From: Desulfonatronum sp. SC1
GTDB taxonomy: Bacteria > Desulfobacterota > Desulfovibrionia > Desulfovibrionales > Desulfonatronaceae
Length of the DNA stretch: 32,000 nt
Assembly: GCF_003046795.1 (NCBI RefSeq)
Contig: NZ_PZKN01000009.1
Location: 69,980 to 101,979 of the forward strand
Reading direction: 5' to 3'
Shown here in pieces: positions 2,746 to 21,408 of this stretch. The position numbers were made by a program, and so were the translations under genes. Each line of letters starts with the position of its first letter. Within the stretch, counting starts at the first letter, position 1. The notes under the pieces are model-generated. The model made no database searches, had not been told where the DNA came from, and was given only the letters and a program-made list of their open reading frames with translations.

Positions 2746-2774
2746 GCTGAGAAACAAGACACCAGCCAAGGATT

Positions 2775-5597
2775 ATGAAGATGAAAGTAAACAGTTTGTT
2801 CGATTCGCTGCTAGAAGAGCCGCAGAAGCCCTCCGGCCCGGTGACGTGTCTCGGCATGACCTTTGAGAACGACGAGGCCCGCCGCGCCCACTTTACCGAG
2901 GAACTGCGCAAGAAGCTGCAGGACCCGGAGTTCCGCAAGATCGAAGGCTTTCCCATCGGCAGCGACGAGGACATCCTGAATCTAAGTGATCCGCCGTATT
3001 ACACCGCCTGCCCGAACCCGTGGATTGCTGACTTCATTGCCGAGTGGGAGGCGCAGAAGCCGGAACAGCCTGAAGGCTACCACTATCACCGTGAACCATT
3101 TGCGGCCGACGTGAGCGAGGGGAAAAACGACCCAATTTACAACGCGCACTCCTACCACACCAAGGTGCCGCACAAGGCCATCATGCGCTACATCCTCCAT
3201 TACACGCAGCCGGGAGATATCGTGTTCGACGGGTTCTGTGGGACCGGCATGACCGGTGTAGCGGCGCAGATGTGTGGTGACCGCGAAGTGGTCATGTCTC
3301 TTGGCTACCAGGTTAAGCCGGACGAGACCATTTTGCAGGAAGAGATCGATGAAGATGGCAAAAAGGTTTGGCGGCCGTTTTCAAAACTGGGCTCTCGTAG
3401 GGCTGTGCTGAACGACCTTTCGCCAGCGGCCACATTTATCGCCTACAACTACAATACGCCAGTCGATGTAGCAACATTTGATAAAGAGGTCAAACGCATT
3501 CTCAAGGAAGTCGAAAAAGAATGCGGCTGGATGTATGAGACCAAGCACTCGGATAATCGTATAGGAAATGTCAATTATACCATTTGGTCTGATGTGTTCT
3601 TGTGCGGTGAATGTTCGCAAGAGATTGTCCTTTGGGATGCTGCTGTTGACAAGGATTCTGGCGAGGTTTCATCAGAGTTTTTGTGTCCAGGATGCGGAGC
3701 TAGTTGGACCAAGAGGACAGCCGAACGAGCTTTCACAACGACTTTTGATCAATCATTGAATGAAACTATAAAGCAAGCCAAAAAGATTCCAGTCCTTATT
3801 AATTATTCGGTGTCAGGGAAAAGCTACACCAAGACTCCCGATGAATACGACTTCGGGCTTCTTAATAAAATTGATAGTAGTAATATCCCGACTTGGTTCC
3901 CTGTTGACCGATTGATGGATGGGAAGGAGACCCGTAGAAACGATCCTATTGGAATAACGCATTCCCATCATTTTTATACTAAGAGAAATTTATGGGTGTT
4001 TAGCTCATTTCTCTCCAAAACTATGGGCTCATTTTGGAAGAATCATTTCTGGGGCGCAGCCAAAGACTGCCAGTCTTATGCAACCAGAATGATCAAAATC
4101 AATATTAAGCGGCTATTATTCGGCGGCGGGCAGTTTATGGGATTCGTAGGTGGCACTCTATACGTGCCTAGCCTTCACGGAGAACAAAGCACGCTTAAAT
4201 CAATAGCGACAAAAACAAAAAAGGTTTCTTCTAATTACAGGAACCGAATGGACCAGTCTGGTGTAATGATAGGCTCGAGTTCGCTGAGTTCATCTGATAC
4301 CCAACCAGAAGAATCAATCGATTACATTTTTCTCGATCCTCCATTTGGCTCAAACATCAATTACTCTGAACTGAATTTTCTATGGGAGTCCTGGCTTAAG
4401 ATCTGGACAAATATTGAGCCAGAAGCCATTGAGAACGATGCTCATAGCAAAACGCTCGATGATTATCGCCATTTGATGACGAAATGCTTTCGAGAGGCTT
4501 ATCGTGTCCTGAAGCCTGGCCGTTGGATGACGATAGAGTTTTCAAATACAAACGCAGCGGTTTGGAACAGCATCCAGACTTCGCTTACCGAGGCCGGATT
4601 CATTGTTGCCAACGTATCCGCTCTTGACAAGAAGCAGGGAAGTTTCAAAGCCTACACTACCCCTACGGCAGTCAAACAAGACCTCGTCATCTCGGCATAC
4701 AAGCCCAATGGCGGTTTTGAAGAGCGTTTCCAAAAGGAAGCGCAAACTGAAGAAGGCGTGTGGGATTTTGTCCGAACCCACCTAAAGTATCTGCCAGTCA
4801 CCAAGCGCCAAGGCGCGTTGATGCTTTTTGTTCCTGAACGTGATCCGCGCATCCTGTTCGACCAGATGATCGCATTCTATGTCCGCAAGGGTTACCCCGT
4901 GCCGATCTCTAGCCAGGAATTTCAGATCGGGCTGGCACAACGTTTCATAGAGCGCGACGGCATGTACTTCCTACCGGACCAGGTGGCCGAATACGACCGC
5001 AAGATAATGACCTCCGGTGCCCCACAGCAGCTTTCGATGTTCGTCTCCGACGAGGCCTCGTCGATCCAGTGGCTCCGCCAGCTCATCAGAGAAAAACCGC
5101 AGACGTTCTCCGGCATCAATCCGCAGTTCATGCAGCAGCTCGGCGGCTGGAGCAAAAACGAGGCACAGCTCGACCTGCGCGAACTGCTGAACCAGAACTT
5201 CCTCTGCTACGACGGCAAAGGCCCGGTGCCCGAGCAGATCCACGCCTACCTCTCCACCAACTGGAAAGAGCTGCGTAACCTGCCCAAGGATAATCCGACC
5301 CTGGTCGCCAAGGCACGCGACCGCTGGTACGTGCCTGATCCCAACAAGGCGGGCGACCTGGAGAAGCTGCGCGAGAAGGCACTACTCAAGGAGTTCGAGG
5401 AATACAAAGAGGTCAAAAAGAAACTCAAGGTCTTCCGCCTGGAGGCTGTCCGCGCCGGATTCAAGAAAGCCTGGCAGGAGCGCGACTACGCCGTCATCGT
5501 CGCCGTGGCCTACAAGATTCCCAACAACGTTCTTGAAGAAGACCCCAAGCTGCTCATGTGGTACGACCAGGCAGTAACCAGAATGGGAGGCGAATAA
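2775..5597 (+). CDS. pglXI: BREX-associated DNA methyltransferase of the N4/N6 (PF01555-like) type, PglXI-like, 940 aa
   Basis: SAM-binding motif I is VFDGFCGTGMTG (aa 150-161). Catalytic motif IV is IFLDPPFGSNINY (DPPF = aa 521-524, nt 4335-4346). There is also an N-terminal SDPPYYTACPNPW box. A CGEC...CPGC zinc ribbon (aa 277-307) sits between motifs I and IV. Context is brxC upstream with helicase and pglZ downstream. Confidence 0.8.
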   Translation: MKMKVNSLFDSLLEEPQKPSGPVTCLGMTFENDEARRAHFTEELRKKLQDPEFRKIEGFPIGSDEDILNLSDPPYYTACPNPWIADFIAEWEAQKPEQPEGYHYHREPFAADVSEGKNDPIYNAHSYHTKVPHKAIMRYILHYTQPGDIVFDGFCGTGMTGVAAQMCGDREVVMSLGYQVKPDETILQEEIDEDGKKVWRPFSKLGSRRAVLNDLSPAATFIAYNYNTPVDVATFDKEVKRILKEVEKECGWMYETKHSDNRIGNVNYTIWSDVFLCGECSQEIVLWDAAVDKDSGEVSSEFLCPGCGASWTKRTAERAFTTTFDQSLNETIKQAKKIPVLINYSVSGKSYTKTPDEYDFGLLNKIDSSNIPTWFPVDRLMDGKETRRNDPIGITHSHHFYTKRNLWVFSSFLSKTMGSFWKNHFWGAAKDCQSYATRMIKINIKRLLFGGGQFMGFVGGTLYVPSLHGEQSTLKSIATKTKKVSSNYRNRMDQSGVMIGSSSLSSSDTQPEESIDYIFLDPPFGSNINYSELNFLWESWLKIWTNIEPEAIENDAHSKTLDDYRHLMTKCFREAYRVLKPGRWMTIEFSNTNAAVWNSIQTSLTEAGFIVANVSALDKKQGSFKAYTTPTAVKQDLVISAYKPNGGFEERFQKEAQTEEGVWDFVRTHLKYLPVTKRQGALMLFVPERDPRILFDQMIAFYVRKGYPVPISSQEFQIGLAQRFIERDGMYFLPDQVAEYDRKIMTSGAPQQLSMFVSDEASSIQWLRQLIREKPQTFSGINPQFMQQLGGWSKNEAQLDLRELLNQNFLCYDGKGPVPEQIHAYLSTNWKELRNLPKDNPTLVAKARDRWYVPDPNKAGDLEKLREKALLKEFEEYKEVKKKLKVFRLEAVRAGFKKAWQERDYAVIVAVAYKIPNNVLEEDPKLLMWYDQAVTRMGGE

Positions 5598-8245
5598 TGG
5601 CAGCATGTAATGAAAAATTTCCTCAGGGTAGCCGTTGGGTGCGTGCCGATTTTCATCTTCACACTGCGGCCGACAAGGAATTCTCCTTTGCGGGGAACCC
5701 CGACTTTTATTGCTCGGATTACATCCATGCGTTGAAGGATGCCGCCATTGAAGTCGGTCTGATTGCAAATCACAACAAGTTCGACTTTGATGAATTCAAG
5801 GCGTTACGAAAGTCCGCTCGAAAACAAGGCATTTTTCTTTTGCCTGGTGTCGAACTGTCCGTTAATGACGGAAGTAACGGCATTCACACTCTCGTCGTTT
5901 TCGGTGAAGAATGGTTGGCGAATGGGAAAAATTATATCAATCAATTTCTCAACGTTGCGTTCGAGGGGAAAATACCAGATCAATACGAAAATGAAAATGG
6001 TAGAAGTTCATTGGGCTTGCTAGAGACCATCAAAAAACTCGAAGGATATAACAAAGATTTTTTCCTGGTGTTTGCGCATGTCGAAGATAAAAGCGGATTA
6101 TGGAACGAATTGGACGGAGGCCGCCTGCAGGAATTAGGGAAATCAGATCTCTTTTGCCGGAGAGCCTTGGCATTTCAAAAAGTTCGAACCCATGTTATGC
6201 CAGACCGTAAATGCCGTGTAAAAGTTCAAGATTGGCTCTGTGAGACTTATCCTGCGGAAGTGGAAGGATCAGACCCCAAGTCAATTGATCAAATTGGAAA
6301 AGGGGAGAAGTGCTACCTGAAAATAGGCGATTTTACATTTGAGGCAGTCAAGTACGCACTTCTGGATCATAACCACCGCCTTGCATGCCAACCACTAATT
6401 TATAAACATTCACACATTCAAAGTGTCTCCTTTGATGGAGGCGTACTTGATGGAAAGACTATCAACCTTTCTCCTGAGTTAAATACACTCATTGGTATTC
6501 GGGGTAGTGGAAAATCTTCCATTGTGGAAGCGATCCGCTATGCCCTGGATATTCCGTTTGGCGAAAAAGCACTGGATACCGATTATAAGACCCGCCTCGT
6601 TGAACACGCCTTGGGAAGCGGAGGAAAAATTACGCTCAAGGCATTTGATCAGCGAGGGCAGCAATACGAAATCAGGCGTATCAGCCGGGAAAAGCCAGAT
6701 GTTTATGTTAAGGGCATTCTCCAACCGGGCATATCAATTCGGGAAACTGTTTTGCATAAACCCATTTATTTTGGACAGAAAGATCTCTCTTCGACAGGGG
6801 AAGGCTTTGAAAAAGATTTAGTAGAAAAACTGGTTGGCGAAAAGCTGGCTGGCATTCGTGCTCGCCTTTCTGACCAGAGCCAAAAGGTTACGGAGATTGT
6901 CAGTCGATTAAAGAAGCTTTCCAATGTTGAAGAGAAAAAGGCAGAATACAAAAGTAAAAAGCAGGACGCTGAATTCAGGCTTGAATTCTACAAAAAATAC
7001 GGAGTTGAGGAGAGGCTTCAAAAGCAGGTAGATTTTGATGCGGATTCGAGGAAATGCACTCAAGTGCTTACTTTCGTTCAAGGCTATCTGCGCGATCTGG
7101 AATCATTCATCAATCAATATGAGGATGATTTAAACAACCAGCGAATTTATACTTCAAAACAGAACAAAGATTTTTTTGATACCTTTTTTGCAGACTACGA
7201 TCAGCTCATTGACTCTTTTAATCGCACTAAGGATGCCCTTGCTTCTGGAAATCAAGTGCTAGCCGCACTTCGGACGAAATCAGAGGAATTCAGTAAGCTC
7301 AAGGAAGGGCTTAAGGAGGAATTTGCAGAAATCGAAAGAAAGCTGGCCGAACAATTGAAAGAGGCTGGAGTACAGGCCATTCGTCCGGAAGAATTCCGAA
7401 ACCTTAGGAAGACGGTGGATCAGGCCACGCAAATGCTGCAGGCTTTAGAAAAAGAAGAGGCAGTTCGCGGAAGTTTAAGAGGAGATTTTTTAAAGGATCT
7501 AGCTGCATTAAATGATCTTTGGCACGAAGAGTTTAAGACTATAAAGGGCGAATTGGATAAGGTCAACGAAGGTCATTCATCTCTGGCGATCGCTGCTGAG
7601 TTCAAAGGTGACAAAGTAGCCTTTATTAATTTTATGAAGGAAATTTTTCGTGGCAGCCGAATCCGGGAATCTACATTTCAGAATCTTTCCGATAGCTATG
7701 CCGACTTTGGAGCCATGTATAAGGATTGGAACTCTGTCAAAAGGGAGGTTGGAAACTCGGCAGATGTTTTTGGGCAATACTTCAGTAATAATCTTGAAGC
7801 GCTTCTGACTTTTCAAGTCCCCAATCGTTTCACTATCAAATATAGGGGCAAAGAACTGAAACACCATTCCTTGGGCCAGCGGGCATCTGCGTTGATCCTC
7901 TTTGTGCTAAGTCAACAGGAAAATGACGTTTTCCTTATTGATCAGCCAGAAGATGATTTGGATAATCAGACAATTTATGAAGATGTTATCAAGCTAATTC
8001 AAAGTTTAAAGCCGAAAACCCAGTTTGTCTTCGCTACTCATAACGCCAATTTTCCTGTGCTTGGTGATGCAGAGCAAGTTATCGCTTGCTCATATTCCGA
8101 TGATAAAATCCATGCTGTAAGTGGAAGCATCGACTGTCCAAAACTTCAACAGGAAATTGTTGACATTATGGAGGGCGGTGAAGAGGCATTCAGGCAGCGC
8201 AAAAGGAGATATGAAATATGGAAACCGCTGAGCTCCTTGAAATAA
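5597..8245 (+). CDS. Fusion protein: N-terminal PHP-family phosphoesterase domain + SMC/RecF/ABC-like ATPase with a long coiled coil (882 aa from ATG 5597)
   Basis: PHP-type metal-ligand pattern: RADFHLHT (HLH at nt 5654-5662), IANHN, PGVELS, IHTLVVF, VFAHVED. Walker A is LIGIRGSGKSSIVEAI (nt ~6494-6517). About 300 aa of E/K/L-rich coiled coil follow. The ABC signature-like motif is HSLGQRA, Walker B is VFLIDQPEDDLD (nt ~7931-7963), and the H-loop is FATHNAN. I prefer ATG 5597 over the track's 5558: GGGAGG lies 6 nt upstream, and it overlaps the pglXI stop as TAATG. Confidence 0.8.
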   Translation: MAACNEKFPQGSRWVRADFHLHTAADKEFSFAGNPDFYCSDYIHALKDAAIEVGLIANHNKFDFDEFKALRKSARKQGIFLLPGVELSVNDGSNGIHTLVVFGEEWLANGKNYINQFLNVAFEGKIPDQYENENGRSSLGLLETIKKLEGYNKDFFLVFAHVEDKSGLWNELDGGRLQELGKSDLFCRRALAFQKVRTHVMPDRKCRVKVQDWLCETYPAEVEGSDPKSIDQIGKGEKCYLKIGDFTFEAVKYALLDHNHRLACQPLIYKHSHIQSVSFDGGVLDGKTINLSPELNTLIGIRGSGKSSIVEAIRYALDIPFGEKALDTDYKTRLVEHALGSGGKITLKAFDQRGQQYEIRRISREKPDVYVKGILQPGISIRETVLHKPIYFGQKDLSSTGEGFEKDLVEKLVGEKLAGIRARLSDQSQKVTEIVSRLKKLSNVEEKKAEYKSKKQDAEFRLEFYKKYGVEERLQKQVDFDADSRKCTQVLTFVQGYLRDLESFINQYEDDLNNQRIYTSKQNKDFFDTFFADYDQLIDSFNRTKDALASGNQVLAALRTKSEEFSKLKEGLKEEFAEIERKLAEQLKEAGVQAIRPEEFRNLRKTVDQATQMLQALEKEEAVRGSLRGDFLKDLAALNDLWHEEFKTIKGELDKVNEGHSSLAIAAEFKGDKVAFINFMKEIFRGSRIRESTFQNLSDSYADFGAMYKDWNSVKREVGNSADVFGQYFSNNLEALLTFQVPNRFTIKYRGKELKHHSLGQRASALILFVLSQQENDVFLIDQPEDDLDNQTIYEDVIKLIQSLKPKTQFVFATHNANFPVLGDAEQVIACSYSDDKIHAVSGSIDCPKLQQEIVDIMEGGEEAFRQRKRRYEIWKPLSSLK

Positions 8246-9375
8246 TAAGTCGTGACGAGGACAGCAAGCATCAGTTTAAGGCCAACATTACGAATGAAAC
8301 GTCTTTGGCACAGGAGATGGTTGCCTTCAGTAACTCCGGAGGTGGTTCAATTTTCATCGGTGTGAGCAATGATGGCACATTCTCTGGATTGGAACGGAGC
8401 GACATGGGGCGACTTAACCAGTTGGTCTCAAATGCGGCATCGCAGCAAGTTAGGCCACCGATAAATCCATTGACGGAAAACATCCCTACTCCCAGCGGGC
8501 TTGTTATGCATGTGATTGTTCCGGATGGCATCAGCAAGCCCTATATGGATAAAAATGGAGTGATCTGGGTAAAGAGCGGGTCTGACAAGCGTAAAGCAAC
8601 GTCTCGGGAGGAAATTCAGCGGCTATATCAGAGTGCCAGCTTAATTCATGGTGATGAGATCCCTGTTGCGGGGCTGACAGTTGCCGACCTTGATGTTGAT
8701 TACTTCAGGGAGTTTTTCGAAAGAAATTTTAGAGAATCGCTCGAACAGCAGGAGCTGGCATTGCCGGAACTTCTCCACAATATGAATTTGATGAAAGACA
8801 GTTCTCTAAATATCGCCGGCGCACTGCTATTTGCAAAAAATCCAAGCTTCAAGTTGCCGGCATTTATCGTTAAAGCTATTGCTTTCCGGGGCAATGAAAT
8901 CCATGAGACGGAATATATGGATAGCCGAGATATTTCAGGAAAGTTGCCCGATATATTTCGACAAAGCATGAGTTTTGTGCTTGCCAACATTCATCATGTC
9001 CAAGGCGATCAAGATGTGAACGCTCCAGGTCAGCCCGAAATCCCGCCAATCGCGCTTGAAGAACTCATCGCCAATGCTCTCATTCACCGGGATTATTTTG
9101 TAACCGCACCTGTAAGAATTTTTATTTTTGACAACCGAGTAGAGATAATTAGCCCTGGGCACCTGCCCAATAACTTAACGATTGAAAATATAACAAGTGG
9201 AAACTCGAATATTCGGAACCCCATCCTAGCTTCCTTTGCGACAAAAATTCTGCCTTACCGAGGCCTAGGAAGCGGCATCATCCGTGCTTTAAAGGCCTAT
9301 CCTCATATTCATTTTGAAGATGATCGGGACGGGAATCTCTTCAAAGTGACTATTCAGCGAACAGCGAATGACTGA
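8218..9375 (+). CDS. AlbA_2 (PF04326, Schlafen-fold 'divergent AAA') + HATPase_c_4-like domain protein, COG2865-type, 385 aa
   Basis: The N-terminus reads ESKHQFKANI...LAQEMVAFSNSGGGSIFIGVSNDGTFSGL, typical of AlbA_2. The C-terminus reads LEELIANALIHRDYFVTAPVRIFIFDNRVEIISPGHLPNNLTIENI..GNSNIRNPILASF...RGLGSGIIRA, typical of the RecG-C-like/HATPase_c_4 module. A GGAG SD lies 9 nt upstream of ATG 8218. The start overlaps the preceding gene by 28 nt. Confidence 0.75.
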   Translation: METAELLEIISRDEDSKHQFKANITNETSLAQEMVAFSNSGGGSIFIGVSNDGTFSGLERSDMGRLNQLVSNAASQQVRPPINPLTENIPTPSGLVMHVIVPDGISKPYMDKNGVIWVKSGSDKRKATSREEIQRLYQSASLIHGDEIPVAGLTVADLDVDYFREFFERNFRESLEQQELALPELLHNMNLMKDSSLNIAGALLFAKNPSFKLPAFIVKAIAFRGNEIHETEYMDSRDISGKLPDIFRQSMSFVLANIHHVQGDQDVNAPGQPEIPPIALEELIANALIHRDYFVTAPVRIFIFDNRVEIISPGHLPNNLTIENITSGNSNIRNPILASFATKILPYRGLGSGIIRALKAYPHIHFEDDRDGNLFKVTIQRTAND

Positions 9376-12259
9376 CCACTGGCAATACAGCACCGTTCAT
9401 AACAGTGCCTGCAAGGTCATCGAAGAACAGATCCTGTGGGGGCAGACGGTGTGCCGTGTCTGGTTGCCGAACCAGGACGCAGTGGTGCGCGTGCCCCGCT
9501 CCGCTTTGCGGCCGCTGAGTGCCGACCTGCAGCCGGAGATCGAGGCCGGACGCATTGCCTATGTGGCCGCCGCAGCCAAGGTGGCCGAGGTGCTCGAGGG
9601 CTCCACCAGCGCCATCGAGGGTCATGTATTGCTGGCTCCCATGGAGTCCAACGTCATTCCTCTACCGCACCAGATCCACGCCTTGTCCCGGGCCATCTCC
9701 GGCGACCGCGTGCGATACTTGCTGGCTGACGAGGTGGGTCTCGGCAAGACCATCGAGGCCGGCTTGGTCATGCGTGAACTCAAGTTACGCGGGCTGGTGC
9801 GTCGAACCTTGGTTGTCTCCCCCAAAGGTATCGCCACCCAGTGGATGGCGGAAATGCAGACACACTTTAGCGAACAGTTCCGGCTCGTGCTGGGCGACGA
9901 TATCAGCACATTACAACGTCTTGCCCCAATGGCAAACCACCGAAGTTCAGCCTGGTCGATGTTTGATCAAGTCATCGTCTCCCTGGATTCGGTCAAACCC
10001 ATGGACAGACGTCGCGGTTGGACGGCAGAACGAGTTGCCGAATACAACCGCAGCCGATTCGAGGATCTGATTACTGCCGGTTGGGACCTAGTGATTGTGG
10101 ATGAAGCGCACCGGCTGGGTGGCAGCACCGACCAGGTTGCCCGCTACAAACTCGGCCAGGGATTGGCGGAAGCCGCGCCCTATTTGCTGCTGCTCTCGGC
10201 TACGCCTCACCAAGGCAAAACCGATGCCTTCCATCGCTTGATGAACCTGCTGGATGATGCCGCTTTTCCGGATATGGGCAGCGTCTCCCGCGAGCGGGTT
10301 GCCCCGTATGTCATCCGCACTGAAAAGCGCAAGGCCATCGATGCTGATGGGAAGCCGCTTTTTAAACCTCGACGCACGCTGATGGCTCCTGTGGTCTGGG
10401 AGAGCCGCCATCACCTGCAGCAGCTACTTTACGAAGCGGTTACCGACTACGTGCGCGAGGGCTACAACCAGGCCTTGCGCGAGAAGAAGCGCCACATCGG
10501 TTTTTTGATGATCCTGATGCAGCGCCTGGTGGTCTCCAGCACCCGGGCGATCCGCACCACTTTGGAACGTCGGCTTGGGGCGCTCAAGGATGGCGAGCAA
10601 CAAGCCAGTATGCGACTGGCGGAGCTTGAAAACATCGCGGAGGAATCGGACAGTTTCGACGAACTGTACGACATGGACGGCCAGGAATTGCTCGAAGAAT
10701 TGCTGAAGTCCCATGTGTCGGCCCTCCAGAACGAAAGGAGTCTGGTTGAGACCCTACTCGACGCGGCAGTCCGTTGTGAGCAGGCGGGGCCGGATGCCAA
10801 GGCTGAGGCGTTGATCGAACAGATCTACAAGTTGCAAGCCGAGGAAAACGAGCCGGATCTGAAGGTGCTGATTTTCACTGAGTTCGTGCCTACGCAGCAG
10901 ATGCTCAAGGAGTTTCTTGAAGCGCGGGGCATCTCGGTCGTCACCCTGAACGGTTCCATGGGTATGGAGGAGCGGATGCAGGCCCAGGATGCCTTCCGCA
11001 AGTCGCACCGCGTGCTGGTTTCCACCGACGCAGGCGGCGAAGGCCTGAACCTGCAGTTCGCCCACGTTATCATCAACTACGACATCCCGTGGAACCCGAT
11101 GCGGCTGGAACAGCGGATCGGACGCGTTGACCGAATCGGCCAGCCCAAAACGGTGCGGGCGATCAATTTTGTTTTTGAGGATTCGGTCGAGTTCCGGGTC
11201 CGCGAAGTGTTGGAGCAGAAGCTCTCCGTGATCTTCGAGGAGTTCGGCATCGATAAGACCGGCGACGTTCTCGACTCCGCCCAGGCCGGAGAATTGTTTG
11301 AGGATGTGTTCACCACGGCGATTCTCAATCCAGATGGTATCGAGACCTCCGTTGATCACACAGTAGCCCGTATTCGAGATGAGATTCAGCATGTGCGAGA
11401 GTCTTCGGCGATTTTCGGCATCTCTGAAGAACCGGATGTACAGGCCGCTGAGCGTCTACGCTCCCATCCGCTACCCCACTGGGTGGAGCGAATGACGGTT
11501 GGCTACCTCAACTCCCATGGCGGTGCTGTCACCCGCAAGCGTTCGTGGTGGGACCTGGGCTGGCCGGATGGCCAGCAGCATCGCAAATGCGTTTTTAGCG
11601 CCCGGGAAGCGGAGCGCCTGACTGATGCCACGCTGCTCAATCTTGAAAACAACCGGGTCCGTGGCCTTGCCCTGAATCTGCCACAGATGGCCGCCGGTCA
11701 GCCTTTGCCTTGCGTAAGCTTAAATGGACTGCCAGCCAACATCGCAGGTTTTTGGGGCCTGTTTGAAGTTCGCCTTCAGGCCGGGATGCACCAGAAGACG
11801 CAACTTCTGCGCATCCCCACTGTGCGGCGTGGCTATGTCAGCGTGTTTTTGAGCGAGGAAGGCAAACTGTTTCTGCCCACTGCCCGGCATATCTGGGATG
11901 CGCTGCAGACAGCGGAAGTTGAAATGCAAGACACCCTTGGACAGGATGAATCCATTACCGTCTATACGCGCTTGCAGGAAGCAGCAGAGCAGGCCGGGCA
12001 GGAGCTGTTCGACACATTGCAACAGGCTCACATTGATTCGGTGACACGGGAAGAGGAACGCGGCATGGTCGCCTTCACCTCCCGGCGCAAGGCTATCGAG
12101 CGAGTTGGGCTGCCTGAAGTACGCCAGTACCGTCTGGCCCGCTGTGATGCCGAGGAAGCTGAGTGGCGGCATGAACTGCTATCAGCGCGGCAGATCGTAC
12201 CGGAAATCAGGTCGTTGCTGATGTTACGCGTCGTCAAGGCACCCCAATGCAGTTTATAA
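9368..12259 (+). CDS. brxHII: SNF2/RapA-like DEAH-box helicase, BrxHII-like, 963 aa
   Basis: Helicase motifs: I LADEVGLGKT, II VIVDEAHRLGG, III LLLSATPHQG, V VSTDAGGEGLNLQ, VI WNPMRLEQRIGRVDRIGQ. It sits between the BREX methyltransferase and pglZ. The start overlaps the upstream stop (ATGACTGA, 9368-9375). Confidence 0.8.
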   Translation: MTDHWQYSTVHNSACKVIEEQILWGQTVCRVWLPNQDAVVRVPRSALRPLSADLQPEIEAGRIAYVAAAAKVAEVLEGSTSAIEGHVLLAPMESNVIPLPHQIHALSRAISGDRVRYLLADEVGLGKTIEAGLVMRELKLRGLVRRTLVVSPKGIATQWMAEMQTHFSEQFRLVLGDDISTLQRLAPMANHRSSAWSMFDQVIVSLDSVKPMDRRRGWTAERVAEYNRSRFEDLITAGWDLVIVDEAHRLGGSTDQVARYKLGQGLAEAAPYLLLLSATPHQGKTDAFHRLMNLLDDAAFPDMGSVSRERVAPYVIRTEKRKAIDADGKPLFKPRRTLMAPVVWESRHHLQQLLYEAVTDYVREGYNQALREKKRHIGFLMILMQRLVVSSTRAIRTTLERRLGALKDGEQQASMRLAELENIAEESDSFDELYDMDGQELLEELLKSHVSALQNERSLVETLLDAAVRCEQAGPDAKAEALIEQIYKLQAEENEPDLKVLIFTEFVPTQQMLKEFLEARGISVVTLNGSMGMEERMQAQDAFRKSHRVLVSTDAGGEGLNLQFAHVIINYDIPWNPMRLEQRIGRVDRIGQPKTVRAINFVFEDSVEFRVREVLEQKLSVIFEEFGIDKTGDVLDSAQAGELFEDVFTTAILNPDGIETSVDHTVARIRDEIQHVRESSAIFGISEEPDVQAAERLRSHPLPHWVERMTVGYLNSHGGAVTRKRSWWDLGWPDGQQHRKCVFSAREAERLTDATLLNLENNRVRGLALNLPQMAAGQPLPCVSLNGLPANIAGFWGLFEVRLQAGMHQKTQLLRIPTVRRGYVSVFLSEEGKLFLPTARHIWDALQTAEVEMQDTLGQDESITVYTRLQEAAEQAGQELFDTLQQAHIDSVTREEERGMVAFTSRRKAIERVGLPEVRQYRLARCDAEEAEWRHELLSARQIVPEIRSLLMLRVVKAPQCSL

Positions 12260-15200
12260 CTAATGGCCCCGATATCCCTGATGCCCTCTTGCAGGCGCAC
12301 GAAGATGGCCGTGTGGTTTTCTTCTGCGGTGCGGGCATTTCCTACCCTGCGCGCCTGCCGGGTTTCGCGGGTCTGATCGACAAGCTCTACACGGTATTGG
12401 CCGTCACACCCAACGCGGTGCAGCAGGCAGCGATCAAGGCCGGACAGTTCGATACCGCCATCGGCCTGCTGGAAGCGGATATCATCGGCGGCCGCAAAGA
12501 GGCGATTGTTCGCAAAGCGGTCGCAGACATCCTGAAGCCCGACCTCAACGCCCCGAACGCCTCGGCAACCCACGAGGCGCTGCTAATGTTGGGCAAGTGC
12601 CGTAACGGCCACACCCGCCTCATCACCACCAACTTCGATCGCCTGTTCGAGGAAGTGATCGCCGCGAAGTCGCTGCCCGTCGAGAGCTTCAAGGCCCCAC
12701 TGTTGCCTGTACCGAAGAACCGTTGGAATGGCCTGGTGTATCTGCACGGCCTGCTCGGTGCGGCACCGACCGCGAGCGAGCTGGACCGGCTGGTCATCTC
12801 CAGCGGCGATTTCGGCCTAGCTTATCTCACCGAGCGTTGGGCGGCGCGTTTCGTCAGCGAGCTGTTCCGCAGCTGCACCGTCTGCTTCGTCGGTTACAGC
12901 ATCAACGACCCGGTATTGCGCTACATGATGGATGCCCTGGCCGCCGACCGCCTGCTCGGCGAGTCGCCACCGGAGATGTTCGCGTTCGGCAGCTTTTCCA
13001 AGCGCAAGGAAGAGGAACGGGCCAACGAGTGGCGGGCCAAGAATGTCACGCCCATCCTCTACCGCGAGCACAACCGGCACGCCTATCTGCACAAGACACT
13101 GCGCGCATGGGCCGAGACCTACCGCGACGGCGTGCGCGGTAAAGAGCGCATCGTGGTCGAATGTGCCATAGCGCGACCGCTGGCGAGCACTAAACAGGAC
13201 TACTTCATCCCCCGAATGCTGTGGGCGCTCAGCGATCCGGACGGCCTGCCCGCCAAGCGCTTTGCCGAGCTTGACCCCGTGCCGTCGCTGGACTGGTTGG
13301 CACCTTTGAGCGAGGACCGCTACGGCCACGCTGATCTGAATCGTTTCGGTGTTCCGCCGAAGACACCTGCCGATGACAAGCTCACCTTCAGCCTGACTCG
13401 CAGACCCTCGCAGTATCCACTCGCGCCGTCGATGTGTGTCGTTGATACTGGTGCGCGCGGCAGCCACTGGGACAAGGTGATGGGGCATTTGGCACATTGG
13501 ATGATCCGCCACCTCGATGATCCGGCCCTGCTGCTGTGGCTTGTCAAGCGCGGCGGACAACTGCACGACGACCTGATCCGGTTGATAGAACACCGCCTCG
13601 ACGAGTTGGCCCAGCTTGAACGCGAGGGCAACACCGCCAAATTGGCGCGTATTCGTGAAAACGCACCCAACGCGATCCCCGGTCCGCTGATGCGGACCCT
13701 GTGGCGACTGCTGCTGACCGGGCGCGTGAAATCGTGGCTGCGCGACTACAACCTTTATCGCTGGCGCGACCGCTTTAAACGTGATGGTCTCACCGCCACC
13801 TTGCGTCTGGAGCTGCGCGAGATGTTGACACCGCGCGTGTCTCTGCGCGAACCCTTCAGTTGGCCGGATGATGACCGGGAAAGCCCAGAGCCGTCGCAGA
13901 TTAAAGATCTGGTGGAATGGGAGATCGTGCTTTCGACGGATCACGTCCATTCCAGAATGCGGGATCTGCCCAGGGATGAACGCTGGACCGCCGCATTGCC
14001 GGAGCTGCTATCCGATTTCAGCACGTTGTTGCGCGATGCACTCGATCTGATGCGTGAGCTCGGCAGTGCAGAAGCCCGGAGCGACCTATCCTATATACAT
14101 CAACCCTCGATCAGTGGACACCCTCAGAACCGTGACTTCCACGACTGGACGGCCTTGATCGAACTGACCCGGGATGCGTGGCTGGCCACAGCGGCCCAAT
14201 CCCCCGAGCGCGCGGAACTCATGGCGGAATCGTGGTCGCACACGCCCTATCCGCTGTTCCGGCGTCTCGCCCTCTTTGCCGCCGCACAGAGCAATGTAAT
14301 ACCCCTCCGGCGTGCACTCGATTGGCTGCTGGCGGCCGATCACTGGTGGCTGTGGTCGGTGGAAACCGAACGGGAAACCATGCGCCTGCTCGTGGCCCTG
14401 GCACCGCAACTCGATGAGGTGATGCTGCGGGCACTGGAACAGGCCGTGCTCGACGGCCCTCCCCATGATATGTTCAAGGATAACATCGAGCCCGAGCGCT
14501 GGACACGAATTGTTGACCGCACAATCTGGCTCCGGCTGGCAAAGATCGTCGAGGCTGGTGCGGTCTTGGGTATAGTTGCCAAGGACCGGCTGGACAGGCT
14601 CTCAGCTCAGTATCCTGAGTGGCAACTCGCGGTGGATCAGAGCGATGAGTTTCCTTACTGGATGGAGAGTGGCTGGGTCGGTGACAGGGACCCATGGCGG
14701 GATTTCGTATCAATACCTCGCAGCAGGCGCGGCCTATTGAACTACTTGATCGCAAACACGGTGTTGCCCGAGTCGAAACAAGACGACTGGCGAGAAAGGT
14801 GCAAGGATAGCTTTCAAAGCACGGCGTACGCCTTGTGTCATTTGGCAGGACAGAATGTTTGGCCGTATGATCGCTGGCGGGATGCGTTACAGGCGTGGTC
14901 AGAAGAGGAACTACAAAACCGCTCTTGGCGGTACATGGCCCAGGTCCTTGTAAATGCGCCCGATGAAATGCTGCAAACGCTCGCCCATGGTGTCAGCTGG
15001 TGGCTGCAGGCCATTGCAAAGACCTTCGAGGGACACGAAACGCACTTCTTCGGGTTAGCTCGCCGCATCCTGGCGCTGGATCATCAGGATGTCGTCGATA
15101 CCGATGACCCCGTCGGGCGAGCCATCAACCATCCCGTGGGTCAGGTAACGGAGGCACTGCTGCGCTGGTGGTATCGACGCTCACTGGAGGATGGGCAATG

Positions 15201-16035
15201 TTTGCCCGCAGAGCTCAAGCCCACGTTCACTGAGCTTTGCGATACCGGGATCGACAAGTTTCGGCATGGCCGTGTTTTGCTGGCGGCGCATGTCATCACG
15301 TTGTTCCGCGTGGACCGGGATTGGGCGACGCACCACCTGTTGCCCCTTTTTGACTGGCAACGATCGGAAGCCGAAGCGCGCGCGGTGTGGGAAGGTTTCC
15401 TGTGGTCACCGCGCCTGTACTGTCCTCTGATGGAAATGCTTAAGCCGGCCTTCCTCGATACCGCGCGCCATTTTGCGGCATTGGGCAAGCACAACGGCCA
15501 TTACGCATCGTTACTGACATTTGCTGCCCTCGACCCAGGTGACACCTTCACCACGGCTGAGCTGGCGGCCGCCACCCGCTCACTCCCGCCGGACGGTTTG
15601 CACGATGCAGCACAAGCATTGGTGAGAGCGCTTGAGGGCGCGGGCGATCAACGTGCCGACTACTGGACCAACCGGGTTGCCCCGTACCTTCACGCCATCT
15701 GGCCTAAAACGCGAGACAACATTTCACCCGACATCGCCGAAAGTCTTGGCCACCTGTGCATAGCGGCACAAGATGCGTTCCCCGAAGCATTGACGCTGCT
15801 CCGTGTCTGGCTGCAACCGATTGAACACCCGCACTATATCGTGCATCTTCTGGACGAATCTGGACTGTGCAGACAGTTCCCTGCGGAGGCATTGCTGCTG
15901 CTAGATGCAGTAATTGCCGAACAGCAGTGGGCGCTCATGGAGTTGGGTCAATGTTTGGATGAGATTGTGCAGACCGCGTCACATTTTGCGCAAGATGCCC
16001 GTTACTTGAAGCTCCGAGAGTATTTGCGCAGATGA
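12247..16035 (+). CDS. Large SIR2-like (SIR2_2/DSR-type) domain protein: N-terminal ~300-aa sirtuin-like domain + ~950-aa C-terminal region of unknown function (1262 aa)
   Basis: SIR2_2 hallmarks: VVFFCGAGISYPARLPGFAGL (Rossmann G-rich loop), LITTNFDRLFE (Asn129, nt 12631-12633), LVYLHGLL (His167, nt 12745-12747), VISSGDFGLAY, VCFVGYSINDPVLRYMMD. The rest is W/L/R-rich, probably helical repeats. It overlaps brxHII by 13 nt and pglZ by 4 nt (ATGA). Confidence 0.75.
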   Translation: MQFITNGPDIPDALLQAHEDGRVVFFCGAGISYPARLPGFAGLIDKLYTVLAVTPNAVQQAAIKAGQFDTAIGLLEADIIGGRKEAIVRKAVADILKPDLNAPNASATHEALLMLGKCRNGHTRLITTNFDRLFEEVIAAKSLPVESFKAPLLPVPKNRWNGLVYLHGLLGAAPTASELDRLVISSGDFGLAYLTERWAARFVSELFRSCTVCFVGYSINDPVLRYMMDALAADRLLGESPPEMFAFGSFSKRKEEERANEWRAKNVTPILYREHNRHAYLHKTLRAWAETYRDGVRGKERIVVECAIARPLASTKQDYFIPRMLWALSDPDGLPAKRFAELDPVPSLDWLAPLSEDRYGHADLNRFGVPPKTPADDKLTFSLTRRPSQYPLAPSMCVVDTGARGSHWDKVMGHLAHWMIRHLDDPALLLWLVKRGGQLHDDLIRLIEHRLDELAQLEREGNTAKLARIRENAPNAIPGPLMRTLWRLLLTGRVKSWLRDYNLYRWRDRFKRDGLTATLRLELREMLTPRVSLREPFSWPDDDRESPEPSQIKDLVEWEIVLSTDHVHSRMRDLPRDERWTAALPELLSDFSTLLRDALDLMRELGSAEARSDLSYIHQPSISGHPQNRDFHDWTALIELTRDAWLATAAQSPERAELMAESWSHTPYPLFRRLALFAAAQSNVIPLRRALDWLLAADHWWLWSVETERETMRLLVALAPQLDEVMLRALEQAVLDGPPHDMFKDNIEPERWTRIVDRTIWLRLAKIVEAGAVLGIVAKDRLDRLSAQYPEWQLAVDQSDEFPYWMESGWVGDRDPWRDFVSIPRSRRGLLNYLIANTVLPESKQDDWRERCKDSFQSTAYALCHLAGQNVWPYDRWRDALQAWSEEELQNRSWRYMAQVLVNAPDEMLQTLAHGVSWWLQAIAKTFEGHETHFFGLARRILALDHQDVVDTDDPVGRAINHPVGQVTEALLRWWYRRSLEDGQCLPAELKPTFTELCDTGIDKFRHGRVLLAAHVITLFRVDRDWATHHLLPLFDWQRSEAEARAVWEGFLWSPRLYCPLMEMLKPAFLDTARHFAALGKHNGHYASLLTFAALDPGDTFTTAELAAATRSLPPDGLHDAAQALVRALEGAGDQRADYWTNRVAPYLHAIWPKTRDNISPDIAESLGHLCIAAQDAFPEALTLLRVWLQPIEHPHYIVHLLDESGLCRQFPAEALLLLDAVIAEQQWALMELGQCLDEIVQTASHFAQDARYLKLREYLRR

Positions 16036-18062
16036 GGATCACAATGACTCTTGGTGCAACTTCAAAAATGAGTAGCTGGCGGGATGCCATCCTGAACGAC
16101 TTTGTCCCCAACGTCAGCAAACTGACCTTGGTCGCCGACCCGGACTGTCTGTTGTCCGAGGAGAAACTGTCGCTGGCGCTTCGCGGGCGAGGCTTCGACC
16201 TGATCGAGTTCAATGACCCGGTCGAATTCAGATACGCCTATGAGTCCAAATACCGCTCTATCTGGGACCAGGGCAAGCACACCGATCTGGTGGTGATCCT
16301 CAGGTTGCAGGATGCCGAACTTGAATCCTTGCCTTACGATCTGCTCCAGGCGGGCAGGAAGCTGTCGTTCAACCTGGGGGAGCTTTTCCCAACGCTCAGT
16401 TACCCGGTCATCGAGAAGCTTGACCGGAGCCTGCTGGACGCGCTTTTTGAAGCTCAGCGCAAGTCGTCACTGGATCGCATGGGCGACAACGCCACCAAGG
16501 ATTTCATTCTCCGTCATGTGTTCGGCATCGCGGCGGAGTTGATTGCCAACGAGGTGGACCTGCTTCGCGCCTTGCTCCGTTTGCATTACGGCAAACTTCA
16601 GATTCCTCTGATGCTGGCCGAGCGGCTCATCCAGGTTATTAAAGGCCATGATGGACTCAAGTCCTGGCCGCTTTCTGAAATCGTTCCGGACGACGAGGCA
16701 TTCTTCACCTTTTTGCAGGAACGCTGGCCGGTTTTTCTTTCCAGACTTGGCGGTGCCAATCAGGTCAGAGATGACTCGCCAGGTTTTGGCCTCAAGTATC
16801 CTGGTCCGGATCACCTGCCGTTCGACCATCAGGACATCAAGGTCTACATCGACAACCTTTTCCTGGAGGGGAAACTCACTCCTGTCGAGGCCAAAGGCAT
16901 TGAAGTGGATGCTGGGTCCTGGGTTCGGAGCGGTATTGCCACGTCCGTCTTTGCCGATGACGGTCTGCGGATCTCTGGTTTGTTTGATCTTGTCGAAAAA
17001 GATCTGCCCACAGCGGAAGCGCGTTACTCAGACTGGACCGCCTTTGCATTAAAATGGGCGGAACTGTCCTCGCTGGTTCATTGCAGCATAAGCACCGAGT
17101 ATCAGACCCGGCTCAGGGAAATCGGCGATGCCTTGAACACAACCTTTGCCGGCTGGCTGACTGGCCACTACTCGAGTCTGATCAACTTGCCGCCGACCAC
17201 TCCGGCCATGCTGCACCATGTGCCGCGCCGCCTGGCTCGGGACATCGAGGATTCCACTGACAGCCGAGCTGCGCTGATTGTGATCGATGGACTTGCCTTG
17301 GATCAGTGGGTGACCATCCGCCAGCTTCTGCAAAAGCAGGATGCCAGCCTGGTCATGCGCGAATCCGCAACTTTTGCCTGGATTCCAACGCTGACATCGG
17401 TATCGCGGCAATCAATTTTTTCGGGCAAGCCGCCGCTCTTTTTCCCCTCATCCATCAACTCGACAAACAGCGAAGAGAAACTCTGGAAGCAGTTCTGGGA
17501 AGGCCATGGACTGTCCCGGCTGGATGTCGCTTACCAGCGAGGCCTTGGCGACGGCGATGCTGCGGGCGTCCTCGACATCGCAATCCACCATGGGAGGACC
17601 AAGGTGGTGGGGCTGGTCATAGACAAGGTAGACAAGATCATGCACGGGATGCAACTCGGCTCAGCCGGGATGCACAACCAGATCAAGCAATGGTGCCAAG
17701 GTGGTTTTCTGGCCGCCCTGGTCGGCCAACTGTTGGAATACGGCTATGAGGTATGGCTGACGGCTGATCACGGCAACATTCAATGTGACGGCAAAGGCCG
17801 CCCATCTGAGGGTGTGATTGCCGAAACTCGCGGCGAGCGGGTTCGCGTATATCCCACCCCGGAACTCCGCGCTCAGGTGGCAGGAGCCTTTCCTTTTGCC
17901 CACAAGTGGCAACCAGTCGGATTGCCACCAAACTATTTCCCCTTGGTGGTCAATGGCCACGACGCGTTTGTTAGTCCAGGAGATGTCATCGTAGGTCACG
18001 GCGGTGTAGCCATTGAAGAAGTCATCGTGCCCCTGGTGAAGTTTGAAAGGAGGACTCGGTGA
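16032..18062 (+). CDS. pglZ: PglZ, BREX alkaline-phosphatase-superfamily protein, 676 aa
   Basis: PglZ/alkaline-phosphatase-like motifs are ALIVIDGLALDQW, TLTSVSRQSIFSG and VWLTADHGN. Size and operon position fit BREX. The start could instead be ATG 16044. Confidence 0.8.
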   Translation: MRITMTLGATSKMSSWRDAILNDFVPNVSKLTLVADPDCLLSEEKLSLALRGRGFDLIEFNDPVEFRYAYESKYRSIWDQGKHTDLVVILRLQDAELESLPYDLLQAGRKLSFNLGELFPTLSYPVIEKLDRSLLDALFEAQRKSSLDRMGDNATKDFILRHVFGIAAELIANEVDLLRALLRLHYGKLQIPLMLAERLIQVIKGHDGLKSWPLSEIVPDDEAFFTFLQERWPVFLSRLGGANQVRDDSPGFGLKYPGPDHLPFDHQDIKVYIDNLFLEGKLTPVEAKGIEVDAGSWVRSGIATSVFADDGLRISGLFDLVEKDLPTAEARYSDWTAFALKWAELSSLVHCSISTEYQTRLREIGDALNTTFAGWLTGHYSSLINLPPTTPAMLHHVPRRLARDIEDSTDSRAALIVIDGLALDQWVTIRQLLQKQDASLVMRESATFAWIPTLTSVSRQSIFSGKPPLFFPSSINSTNSEEKLWKQFWEGHGLSRLDVAYQRGLGDGDAAGVLDIAIHHGRTKVVGLVIDKVDKIMHGMQLGSAGMHNQIKQWCQGGFLAALVGQLLEYGYEVWLTADHGNIQCDGKGRPSEGVIAETRGERVRVYPTPELRAQVAGAFPFAHKWQPVGLPPNYFPLVVNGHDAFVSPGDVIVGHGGVAIEEVIVPLVKFERRTR

Positions 18063-18814
18063 TGGGCAAAAGACACGAAGCCATTGGCATCAAGCAGGCG
18101 ATCCGTTTCGAGTGGATGCAGAAAGTAGCCAATCTTTTGCTGGCTGGACTCGATGCAAAAACCATCCGCCAGGAGCTGCATGAGTTCCTCACGGACAGAA
18201 AAGGCAACGGCACTGAAGGTGAACGAAGCGATCAGACCCGGACATTTGTCGTCAACAACCTGATGAAGATCTGGGTCTCTCCTGACCCCGAACTAATTTC
18301 ATTCCGGGATACCTCGCTGGCGTTTCTGCAGGCAAACCCGTCCATGGCCCTGGCGGTTCACTGGGGGCTGATCTCAGCGGTCTATCCGTTCTGGTTCTCT
18401 GTAGCCCGTCAGACCGGCCGCCTGTTGTCCTTGCAGGATCAGGTGACCCAGACGCAGATCATCAACCGCCTCAAGGAACAGTACGGCGACCGGCAAACCG
18501 TGAGTCGCTATGCGAGATTTGTCATCCGCTCCTTTGTCGCCTGGGGAGCCCTGAAGGATTCCGAGGCCAAAGGCTGCTATGAGAAAGCCGCCCTGGTGAG
18601 TATTGCCGAACCAAAACTGGCCATCCTGATGTTCGAGTCCGCACTCCTCGCCACCCCGGAGGGCAAGGGCGCATTGGGGCTGCTCCTGAACAACCCGGCA
18701 TTCTTCCCATTCCAGCTCCCCGTGATGACCGGTGACTTTGTATCCCAACGCAGCGACCGGATCGATGTGGTTCGCTATGGTTTGGATGATGAATTGTTGA
18801 AATTGAAGGCATAG
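18062..18814 (+). CDS. Terminal BREX operon gene, BrxA-position protein (~250 aa); assigned by position only
   Basis: Clean 250-aa ORF. Its ATG at 18062 overlaps the pglZ stop (TGATG). In type 3 BREX, brxA follows pglZ. I cannot recognise DUF1819 motifs by eye. Confidence 0.45.
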   Translation: MGKRHEAIGIKQAIRFEWMQKVANLLLAGLDAKTIRQELHEFLTDRKGNGTEGERSDQTRTFVVNNLMKIWVSPDPELISFRDTSLAFLQANPSMALAVHWGLISAVYPFWFSVARQTGRLLSLQDQVTQTQIINRLKEQYGDRQTVSRYARFVIRSFVAWGALKDSEAKGCYEKAALVSIAEPKLAILMFESALLATPEGKGALGLLLNNPAFFPFQLPVMTGDFVSQRSDRIDVVRYGLDDELLKLKA

Positions 18815-19813: not shown

Positions 19814-20635
19814 TCAAGGAGTATGAGGTGCTCCTCGCATCTTTCCCCAAAGCCGGGACAGAAAGAATCCGCCAGCCGCCACCATGACGATGGCCGCACC
19901 AGCGGTCAGATTCAGGGAGTAGGCCAGAAGCAATCCGCTTACGCAGAACACGGCGCAGAGTAGCACGGACCAAGCCATCATGATTCCCAGTGAACGCGCA
20001 ACCCTTTCCGCCATCACGGCTGGAATGGTCAACAGCGCGATGACCAGAATCAAGCCCACGGCCTGGATGACCGTTACCACGGTCAACGCGGCCAGAGCCA
20101 AAAGGCTGAAATACAGGCCGCGCACCGGGACGCCCATAACCCGTGCATGCTCCTCGTCGTATGACATGGCCAACAGGTCGTGATAGAAAAGCCTCACCCA
20201 GCCCAGCACCACCAGATTCAACGCGGCCATCAGCCATAGGCTTGTGCTGGGCACCAACAGAATGCTGCCAAACAGGTAGCTCATCAAGTCCACGTTGTAC
20301 CCAGGGGTCATGTCCACCAGGATGATCCCCGCGGCCATGCCCACGGCCCAGATCACGCCAATGGTGGCGTCGCTGCGATGCTTGGCCCCCAAACTGATCC
20401 CGCCCATGACCAAGGAAGCCAGCAAAGCGAACAGCGCGGCGCCGAGATACGGCGACGCGCCCAGATAGATCGCCGCGCCCACCCCGCCATAGGAAGCGTG
20501 GGCGACTCCGCCGGACAGAAAGACAAGACGGTTGACCACAACCAAGGCCCCCATCACCCCGCAACAAACGCTGATCAGCAAACAGGCCGCCAAGGCGTTG
20601 CGCATGAATTCGTACTGGAGAAAATCCGGGATCAT
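19814..20635 (-). CDS. znuB: Zinc/metal ABC transporter permease (ZnuB-like), 273 aa
   Basis: Polytopic hydrophobic protein (LLISVCCGVMGALVVVNRLVFLSGGVAHASYGGVG...). It is the last gene of an SBP-ATPase-permease operon and overlaps znuC by 4 nt. Confidence 0.8.
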   Translation of the reverse strand: MIPDFLQYEFMRNALAACLLISVCCGVMGALVVVNRLVFLSGGVAHASYGGVGAAIYLGASPYLGAALFALLASLVMGGISLGAKHRSDATIGVIWAVGMAAGIILVDMTPGYNVDLMSYLFGSILLVPSTSLWLMAALNLVVLGWVRLFYHDLLAMSYDEEHARVMGVPVRGLYFSLLALAALTVVTVIQAVGLILVIALLTIPAVMAERVARSLGIMMAWSVLLCAVFCVSGLLLAYSLNLTAGAAIVMVAAGGFFLSRLWGKMRGAPHTP

Positions 20636-21396: not shown

Positions 21397-21408
21397 GGGA
21401 CAACTCCG

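Follow-up and report, generated by a model that had tools for sequence, protein, structure and literature searches.

The anti-phage sirtuin Dsr1 (DSR1), described by Gao et al. (2020) and Garb et al. (2022), is a single polypeptide of about 1260 amino acids (aa), in which an N-terminal SIR2_2 domain with an invariant Asn/His pair is followed by a helical sensor of about 950 aa. Garb et al. found that DSR1 protects B. subtilis from phi29, with a depletion of NAD+ that is transient and comes without growth arrest (10.1101/2021.12.14.472415), and Srikant et al. found that dsr1 of ECOR17, alone on a plasmid, protects E. coli and is counteracted by T4 nrdC.5 (10.1101/2022.04.14.488369). According to a preprint of January 2026 (PMC12803255), Dsr1 senses through a bilobed domain of TPR repeats that it has in common with Avs7, and toxicity of the E. 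coli protein EcDsr1 is triggered by the phage major capsid protein and abolished by disruption of the effector. A second line of work, 'guilt-by-embedding', concerns defence genes nested in BREX, DISARM, Hma and type I restriction-modification operons, 96.7% of which are co-oriented with their hosts (10.1101/2024.01.29.577857). Here we analyse a stretch of 32,000 nucleotides (nt) from Desulfonatronum sp. SC1, hereafter the window, in which a dsr1 gene lies between brxHII and pglZ of a BREX operon. The best explanation, to which we assign a probability of about 0.82, is that it encodes a canonical Dsr1 carried as optional cargo in a conserved brxHII-pglZ slot of a chromosomal type 3 BREX (BREX-3) operon.

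The operon is of type 3, with BrxC (cut by the window start), PglXI, a SNF2 helicase, PglZ and BrxA; the helicase is called BrxHII by its position, while the best PADLOC model for the same protein is labelled BrxHI. In window positions, the slot and its flanks are as follows.

12247..16035, + strand: dsr1, 1262 aa, ATG start
9368..12259, + strand: brxHII (BREX-3 SNF2 helicase), left flank of the slot; PADLOC PDLC02500, 1624.6 bits
16032..18062 (longest open reading frame), + strand: pglZ (BREX-3 phosphatase), right flank of the slot; BREX_PglZ_3, PADLOC PglZ
12247..12259, + strand: brxHII/dsr1 overlap, 13 nt, ATGCAGTTTATAA

An earlier note on this DNA, made from the letters alone, had drawn the open reading frame (ORF) at 12247..16035 and its 13-nt overlap with brxHII, and both are present in the sequence. 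The brxHII stop TAA (12257-12259) falls within the dsr1 start ATGCAGTTTATAA, across codons 4-5, and the dsr1 stop TGA (16033-16035) overlaps an ATG at 16032 that is in frame with the pglZ ORF. Of the flanking proteins, BrxH is 85-92% identical to BrxH from 70+ related loci, and the pglZ product matches NCBIfam BREX_PglZ_3 with 903.6 bits over residues 17-671 and PADLOC PglZ over residues 13-676.

The protein between them matches the NCBIfam equivalog NF041818 with 1985.6 bits against a cutoff of 1400 bits, its residues 1-1261 falling on positions 1-1263 of a profile of 1263, and the PADLOC model Dsr1 (PDLC02183) with 1707.1 bits, residues 1-1262 falling on positions 1-1272 of 1275. More than 4000 homologues are found at E<=1e-20, among them an NCBI record named 'anti-phage defense-associated sirtuin Dsr1 [Desulfonatronum sp. 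SC1]' that is 100% identical over 99% of the length. This record has 1248 aa, its start being placed 14 residues downstream, probably at the Leu15 codon TTG (12247-12288 region); since the N-terminus MQFITNGP(DIP) is conserved family-wide, the ATG at 12247, which overlaps brxH, is supported as the true start. By its sequence, then, the window protein is a canonical full-length Dsr1 that is already annotated, and the gene itself adds nothing new. The earlier note had called it a defence sirtuin and offered 'DSR1-like' as a fallback; the equivalog match to a defence family bears out the former, and the end-to-end matches to both Dsr1 models show the fallback to have been exact.

Within the protein we distinguish an effector and a sensor region.

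12247..13150, + strand: N-terminal SIR2 NADase effector domain, aa 1 to about 300, from Pfam SIR2_2, the KomC alignment and folds
12631-12633 and 12745-12747, + strand: predicted catalytic codons Asn129 and His167
13147..16032, + strand: C-terminal all-alpha helical-repeat sensor region of about 960 aa (the Dsr1 body)

Pfam SIR2_2 matches residues 124-270 (E 1.8e-24), and the motifs GAGIS, TTNFD (N129), YLHG (H167) and FVGYS lie where they had been placed from the letters alone. No variation at N129 or H167 occurs across 56 diverse members of the family, and in a phmmer alignment with KomC, TTNFD falls on TTNYD and H167 on the His that is mutated in the PDB entry KomC(H146N), which agrees with the catalytic assignment of Asn129 and His167 made earlier. 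An AlphaFold 2 (AF2) model of residues 1-320 has a mean predicted local distance difference test score (pLDDT) of 66.7, with low confidence over residues 146-202, and its best folds are KomC, the SIR2 domain of DSR2, and ThsA (E 1e-7 to 1e-5, template modelling (TM) scores 0.5-0.6); the fold search gives no residue alignment, and the Asn/His assignment rests on the sequence alignment. A profile built from the family alignment retrieved nothing from the PDB sequences beyond KomC, and KomC only in fragments, and sequence searches of the PDB returned no Dsr1 structure. KomC (KomBC/Kongming; PDB 8zsf, 9xvc) is the closest solved sequence and fold for the Dsr1 SIR2 domain, but differs from Dsr1 in being a protein of 264 aa with the SIR2 domain only, which works with partner proteins and a nucleotide signal. 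Similarity to ThsA of Thoeris is weak and confined to the SIR2 domain (23.5 bits, residues 19-266), and whereas ThsA has a C-terminal SLOG/STALD domain and a ThsB partner, Pfam finds no SLOG domain in the window Dsr1 and the locus has no TIR gene.

The remainder of the protein had been described beforehand as an alpha-solenoid-like sensor that matches nothing recognisable. The first part of this description fits the AF2 model of the C-terminal region, which is almost wholly helical (pLDDT 80.7) and whose Foldseek neighbours are generic alpha-solenoids (karyopherins, Pds5B, MMS19, PP2A-A; TM 0.17-0.27), while the second part fails, as the curated Dsr1 models cover the whole protein. When the C-terminal 962 residues were used as a lone query they recovered 2826 representative clusters, and nearly all of the best 150 matches were proteins of about 1250 aa, matched at about 300-1260; because the C-terminus alone recovers the full architecture, this region is the defining body of the Dsr1 family. 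Similar to Dsr1, DSR2 of B. subtilis joins an N-terminal SIR2 NADase to a large alpha-helical C-terminal sensor of a phage structural protein, but DSR2 senses the tail tube whereas the reported trigger of Dsr1 is the capsid protein. None of the PADLOC hits is to a DSR2 model, and the 50 best folds returned for the C-terminal region include no DSR2 chain; only the SIR2 domain matches DSR2 by fold. According to PMC12803255 the sensors of Avs7 and Dsr1 are homologous, with the phage major capsid protein as the trigger of both; Avs7, however, is a STAND NTPase with a TPR sensor, and Dsr1 has no STAND NTPase module.

What sets the window gene apart from characterised dsr1 genes, and from most genomic ones, is that those stand alone with their own promoter whereas the window dsr1 overlaps both of its neighbours. 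The earlier note called this embedding obligate-looking, a view that does not survive comparison with related loci. In a genome scan with the window protein as query and one genome per species, 37 Dsr1 loci were recovered, and 35 of these lie outside the brxHII-pglZ slot: BrxH stands upstream of dsr1 only in L031 and L019, with PglZ downstream in L031 and the contig ending inside dsr1 in L019. In L021 dsr1 lies 5 kb from an oppositely oriented brxC-pglXI, and the other genomic loci, including 81%-identical copies in Pseudomonas and Thauera, have no BREX gene within 10 kb. Annotated standalone dsr1 genes occur in an E. coli defence island (PAR) and on Shewanella plasmids, and DNA searches near identity with 9368-18814 found in E. 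coli genomes and plasmids only short dsr1 patches, which belong to standalone dsr1 genes. Standalone relatives exist whose bodies are 84-87% identical to the window Dsr1. The exact NCBI protein (P0001) has no contig on record, and the genome context of the window dsr1 thus rests on the window itself.

A metagenome scan anchored on PglZ gave the converse view, with 80 BREX-3 loci whose PglZ is 82-92% identical to that of the window, the brxH-pglZ junction being visible in 74. It is empty in 61 of the 74 (82%); in these loci a strong Shine-Dalgarno sequence, AAGGGAGG, precedes a caATGAgt overlap of brxH with pglZ. Dsr1 occupies the slot in three (L059, L073, L076), and also in the cut locus L078, while eight slots hold inserts of 317-440 nt that encode a PDDEXK_3 protein, a 23S-rRNA-IVS four-helix-bundle protein or an unknown ORF of about 100 aa. 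In a tree of BrxH and PglZ the Dsr1-bearing loci are scattered among empty ones, and this, together with the large share of empty junctions, marks Dsr1 as optional cargo in a variable slot. Being absent from the junction of most close relatives, dsr1 does not have the status of a BREX type 3 core gene; it does have the properties by which Payne et al. (2024) define an embedded accessory defence gene.

Several of the other occupants can be described. Inserts of about 425-440 nt in L075, L083, L085 and L111 encode a 23S_rRNA_IVP four-helix-bundle protein. They lie between GTGCGnAGTGC-type repeats on the upstream side and the reverse complements of these on the downstream side, which gives them the appearance of a small mobile intervening element. 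A PDDEXK_3 (GxxExxY-like) ORF lies at the junction of L065 and L087, and the unknown ORF of about 100 aa (MVEIKSRDYWFK...) at that of L049 and L080. In L109 (5518-8999) the slot holds a DEAD-box helicase (692 aa) and a DprA/SLOG-cluster4 protein (468 aa) with 4-nt overlaps, which may be an uncharacterised defence pair. L103 (6593-10010) is a BREX-3 locus without brxHII, where the genes next after pglXI encode an AAA_15/AAA_21/DUF3696 ATPase and a protein of 356 aa; a Dsr1 C-terminal remnant (...QDPPYQRLIEYARRRGEL*) immediately 5' of its pglZ is evidence of cargo loss or replacement. Decay is also seen outside BREX: the standalone dsr1 pseudogene L025:10001-13753 has about 80% DNA identity to the window and is frameshifted after 208 aa, and L038:10001-10111 keeps only the first 37 or so dsr1 codons (97% aa identity). 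We had considered L038 as a BREX remnant and rejected this, as it is a standalone dsr1 that has been truncated, and the sequence after it is unrelated.

The history of the slot can be read from the gene itself and from its junctions, for which two further features are needed.

15800..16035, + strand: clade-B-type 3' tail of dsr1, aa about 1185-1262, 70-77% identical to clade B, breakpoint near aa 1185-1190
16036..16067, + strand: dsr1-pglZ linker, with the likely pglZ ATG at 16044 and the ancestral dsr1 stop at 16045-16047

The window protein belongs by most of its length to a group we call clade A (P0002, P0003, P0005-7, P0009, P0083, P0093 and L073/P0051, 81-89% identical to it), whereas the Dsr1 bodies of L031/L076, L059, L078 and L019 are only 50-55% identical. 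Residues of about 20-1185 are 83-89% identical to clade A, including the standalone copies P0004, L003 and L018; the last 75 or so residues are 46-55% identical to those same three standalone copies and 67-77% identical to clade B, and the first 20 residues are identical to those of the clade-B protein L023. On this pattern of identities the window dsr1 is a mosaic of a clade-A body and clade-B-type termini, with a tail that is a recombinant segment, which distinguishes it from other described Dsr1 proteins. The B-type tail is present in about 10 of 119 clade-A proteins, and tail type agreed with context in 14 of 14 cases, six of them predicted before look-up: all ten B-tail cases examined are embedded between BrxH and PglZ, and all four A-tail cases examined stand alone. 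Divergence data point the same way. The window core genes are sister to those of L031/L076, whose Dsr1 is 55% identical, and between these loci the synonymous divergence (dS) is 3.35 (saturated) for dsr1 as against 1.16 for brxH and 0.77 for pglZ; relative to L120 and L121, dsr1 dS is 0.32 and 0.46, below the 0.57-0.84 of the flanking genes. In a rooted and bootstrapped neighbour-joining (NJ) tree, embedded clade-A copies take several derived positions within a standalone radiation, with weak internal support. We therefore rejected the idea that clade A arose inside BREX and escaped once, as the basal clade-A branches carry the A-type tail and the embedded copies are nested in derived positions.

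The junctions are shared irrespective of the body, among loci whose Dsr1 bodies are 53-89% identical. On the 5' side the embedded loci have in common ...aagg[c/g]nnccnaATGCArTTyATAr, and on the 3' side a linker (c)cctggtgcaacttcaaaa stands between the dsr1 stop and the conserved pglZ sequence AGTAGYTGG, being recognisable in the window, L120, L121, L073 and L059 and partly in L031. The architecture with the 13-nt overlap recurs in L019, L031, L059, L073, L076, L120, L121, L125-L128 and L130, and embedded loci have a BrxH with an altered C-terminal tail and a PglZ with an N-terminal extension. At this junction L120 reads cgcagaCGAggatcacaATGAcc (RRRGSQ*, with an ATGA overlap), and in the window and L121 a CGA has become TGA, a change that creates the premature dsr1 stop of both and, in the window, the ATG at 16032 as well. 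The ancestral ATGA coupling corresponds to 16044-16047, and a GAGGA Shine-Dalgarno precedes it by 5 nt. PADLOC and NCBIfam, as well as 80 relatives, place the beginning of the conserved PglZ body at residue 13 in the window ORF, ATG 16068; the codon that matches M13 is TTG in L121 and AAG in L073, and its loss there means that pglZ of embedded loci must start in the linker. The true pglZ start in the window is probably 16044 or 16068 and not 16032. Thus the ATGA overlap of dsr1 and pglZ that had been noted is real as sequence, but its ATG is an improbable start for pglZ.

Given the homology of both junctions, 5' and 3', across the whole set of embedded loci, the embedded arrangement appears to have arisen once. 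Combined with the mosaic, these comparisons suggest one ancient insertion that spread by homology of the flanking brxH and pglZ genes, and whose body was replaced by standalone alleles while its older termini were kept. The earlier note had spoken of long co-residence and of possible functional integration. The former holds in so far as the embedding is old and shared by a lineage, with dS of 0.3-0.5 to embedded relatives whose junction architecture is identical, but functional integration is not required, since homologues protect alone. The note's premise, that dsr1 resembles the BREX core in composition (GC 0.603 and GC at third codon positions (GC3) 0.709, against 0.588 and 0.699 for brxH and 0.563 and 0.668 for pglZ) and differs from a low-GC cassette upstream (5558-9375, GC 0.43-0.46), agrees with the values, but we rejected it as evidence of amelioration: the GC3 of clade-A dsr1 stays at 0.72-0.74 irrespective of context, even where a copy stands alone between flanks of 48% GC.

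The operon is mosaic beyond dsr1, as BrxA (18059-18814) occurs in markedly different allelic forms whose distribution does not follow that of PglZ. The window BrxA has a nonsynonymous divergence (dN) of 0.03 relative to L040, L053 and L059 and of 0.28-0.40 relative to L073, L031 and L121, and the PglZ and BrxH of these last three are about as close to the window as those of L040. The region 62-5597 is uneven in composition (GC3 0.83 in BrxC and 0.62 in PglXI; GC 0.48 over 3001-5000), and an exchange of the methyltransferase's target-recognition region may be the cause.

Alternatives to optional cargo with a single ancestral insertion were weighed against these data. We consider separate captures of different Dsr1 genes at a hotspot unlikely: embedded copies do sit at at least four places on the tree of Dsr1 bodies, the slot takes unrelated cargo, and the out-of-frame TAA in the consensus start ATGCAGTTTATAA would end any upstream reading frame, but the 3' linker and 5' junction are homologous among embedded loci whatever the clade of the body, capture of whole clade-A genes would not give embedded clade-A copies their clade-B termini, and no recombinase, repeats or target duplications were seen. 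It is far less plausible that the gene is an inactive passenger, a decaying remnant or a housekeeping deacetylase sirtuin, a reading in favour of which there is nothing but the CGA to TGA change that removes four C-terminal residues relative to L120. The ORF is full length with its motifs intact, as is true of every embedded Dsr1 copy, dN/dS is 0.12-0.17 and equal to that of standalone comparisons, L121 carries the same premature stop and is likewise intact, and the equivalog match is to the defence family and not to CobB/Sir2 deacetylases.

A functionally integrated BREX-Dsr1 unit, with position and translational coupling as selected features, would make Dsr1 for instance a guard that fires when a phage anti-BREX protein inhibits BREX, or an effector activated by BrxHII or PglZ. 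Such guard logic for embedded systems was discussed by Payne et al. (cf. PrrC guarding EcoprrI), and one and the same architecture at the junctions has persisted through large divergence and several replacements of the body, in loci with the altered BrxH tail and extended PglZ already described. We nevertheless regard this as quite unlikely, given that 82% of BREX-3 loci with closely related PglZ have no Dsr1, that proteins with nearly the same body stand alone, that Dsr1 works by itself in heterologous hosts and that the slot accepts other cargo. Moreover, no domain or insertion is peculiar to embedded proteins, the B-type tail being normal in standalone clade-B Dsr1. A related and doubtful idea is that the brxHII-pglZ junction is a dedicated Dsr1 'socket', in which the termini are kept for coupling or for BREX contacts while the capsid-sensing body is swapped, yielding a co-regulated two-layer unit. 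If so, body swaps with standalone alleles would change phage specificity, and Dsr1 would possibly guard against BREX evasion. In either form, a functional partnership of BREX and Dsr1 thus ranks between unlikely and quite unlikely on present comparisons.

We therefore retain canonical Dsr1 as optional cargo of the slot, and for its mode of action propose the following. The dsr1 gene would be co-transcribed with the BREX genes and its translation coupled to brxHII; its ATG appears to occupy the position that the pglZ ATG has in cargo-free loci, with the short linker re-coupling pglZ. The helical-repeat sensor of about 960 aa would bind a late phage protein, which for E. coli Dsr1 is the major capsid protein, and binding would activate the SIR2 domain (Asn129/His167) to hydrolyse NAD+, as in Dsr1 homologues; NAD+ depletion would then halt phage replication, again as in homologues. 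In this way Dsr1 would act late and independently, as an abortive or static second layer after the early block by BREX, which is based on methylation; it would not be a BREX subunit. For the window protein we infer every one of these steps by homology. Some points weigh against this account of the locus. The capsid protein is known as the trigger from a single preprint, on an E. coli homologue that is probably about 50-55% identical; the transient NAD+ loss without growth arrest seen by Garb et al. means that 'abortive infection' may be the wrong word; and the number of independent body replacements depends on NJ trees with short and poorly supported internal branches. Operonic expression, too, we infer from the overlaps and from a promoter scan with a possibly unsuitable consensus. 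Finally, Dsr1 is the sole large cargo that recurs in the slot (4/80 loci and the L103 remnant), as a functional partnership with BREX would also predict.

That scan, made with a sigma-70 consensus of doubtful relevance to a deltaproteobacterium, found no promoter-like site upstream of dsr1, which is weakly consistent with operonic expression; in all it gave a single promoter-like site where 3.8 were expected, and that one is not near dsr1, while terminator-like sites were at chance level. Beyond brxA the minus strand carries housekeeping genes (19814-31692: znuB/znuC/znuA, an AIR-synthase-like gene, a LysR regulator, rpoA, rpsD, map, secY and rpsE), and since the BREX locus adjoins them it is chromosomal, beside a ribosomal-protein cluster, and this flank showed neither an integrase nor a tRNA. 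Upstream, the interval between pglXI and brxHII (5558-9375 in the window) holds a two-gene cassette whose ORFs overlap pglXI, one another and brxH. One gene product is an AAA-like ATPase of the TrlF family (NF045780, 579.6 bits; Ppl-like), the other a Schlafen/AlbA_2 protein with HATPase_c_4. Schlafen-kinase-winged helix-turn-helix proteins are among the common BREX-linked effectors in a 2026 survey of BREX in Nucleic Acids Research. In all 52 of the 52 related loci with both genes visible (L040-L119) this interval measures 854-5932 nt and is never a direct junction, which makes it a second cargo slot, seemingly always occupied.

Similar to BrxU in the BREX of pEFER, PARIS in BREX, PrrC in EcoprrI and the other embedded genes of Payne et al. 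(2024), the window dsr1 is nested, co-oriented and optional. The main texts of Payne et al. (2024) and of the 2026 survey mention no SIR2, Dsr1 or NADase cargo of BREX, and the searched main texts on embedded and BREX defence do not mention the brxHII-pglZ junction as a slot. Where the present case departs from described embedding is that the slot keeps its junctions while the body of the cargo is exchanged. This is a known gene in a known type of arrangement, and the history of the slot is a modestly interesting evolutionary detail. It does provide a testable example of how embedded defence cargo can be kept and diversified without mobile-element machinery, through a fixed slot with coupling junctions, spread by homology of the core genes, and replacement of the sensor body by gene conversion. 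An experiment would be justified by a single feature, the recurrence of Dsr1 in the slot with kept junctions, and BREX-3 loci with core proteins about 90% identical, with and without Dsr1, form natural matched pairs suited to asking if the early epigenetic block works independently of the late NADase that senses the capsid, or in synergy with it.

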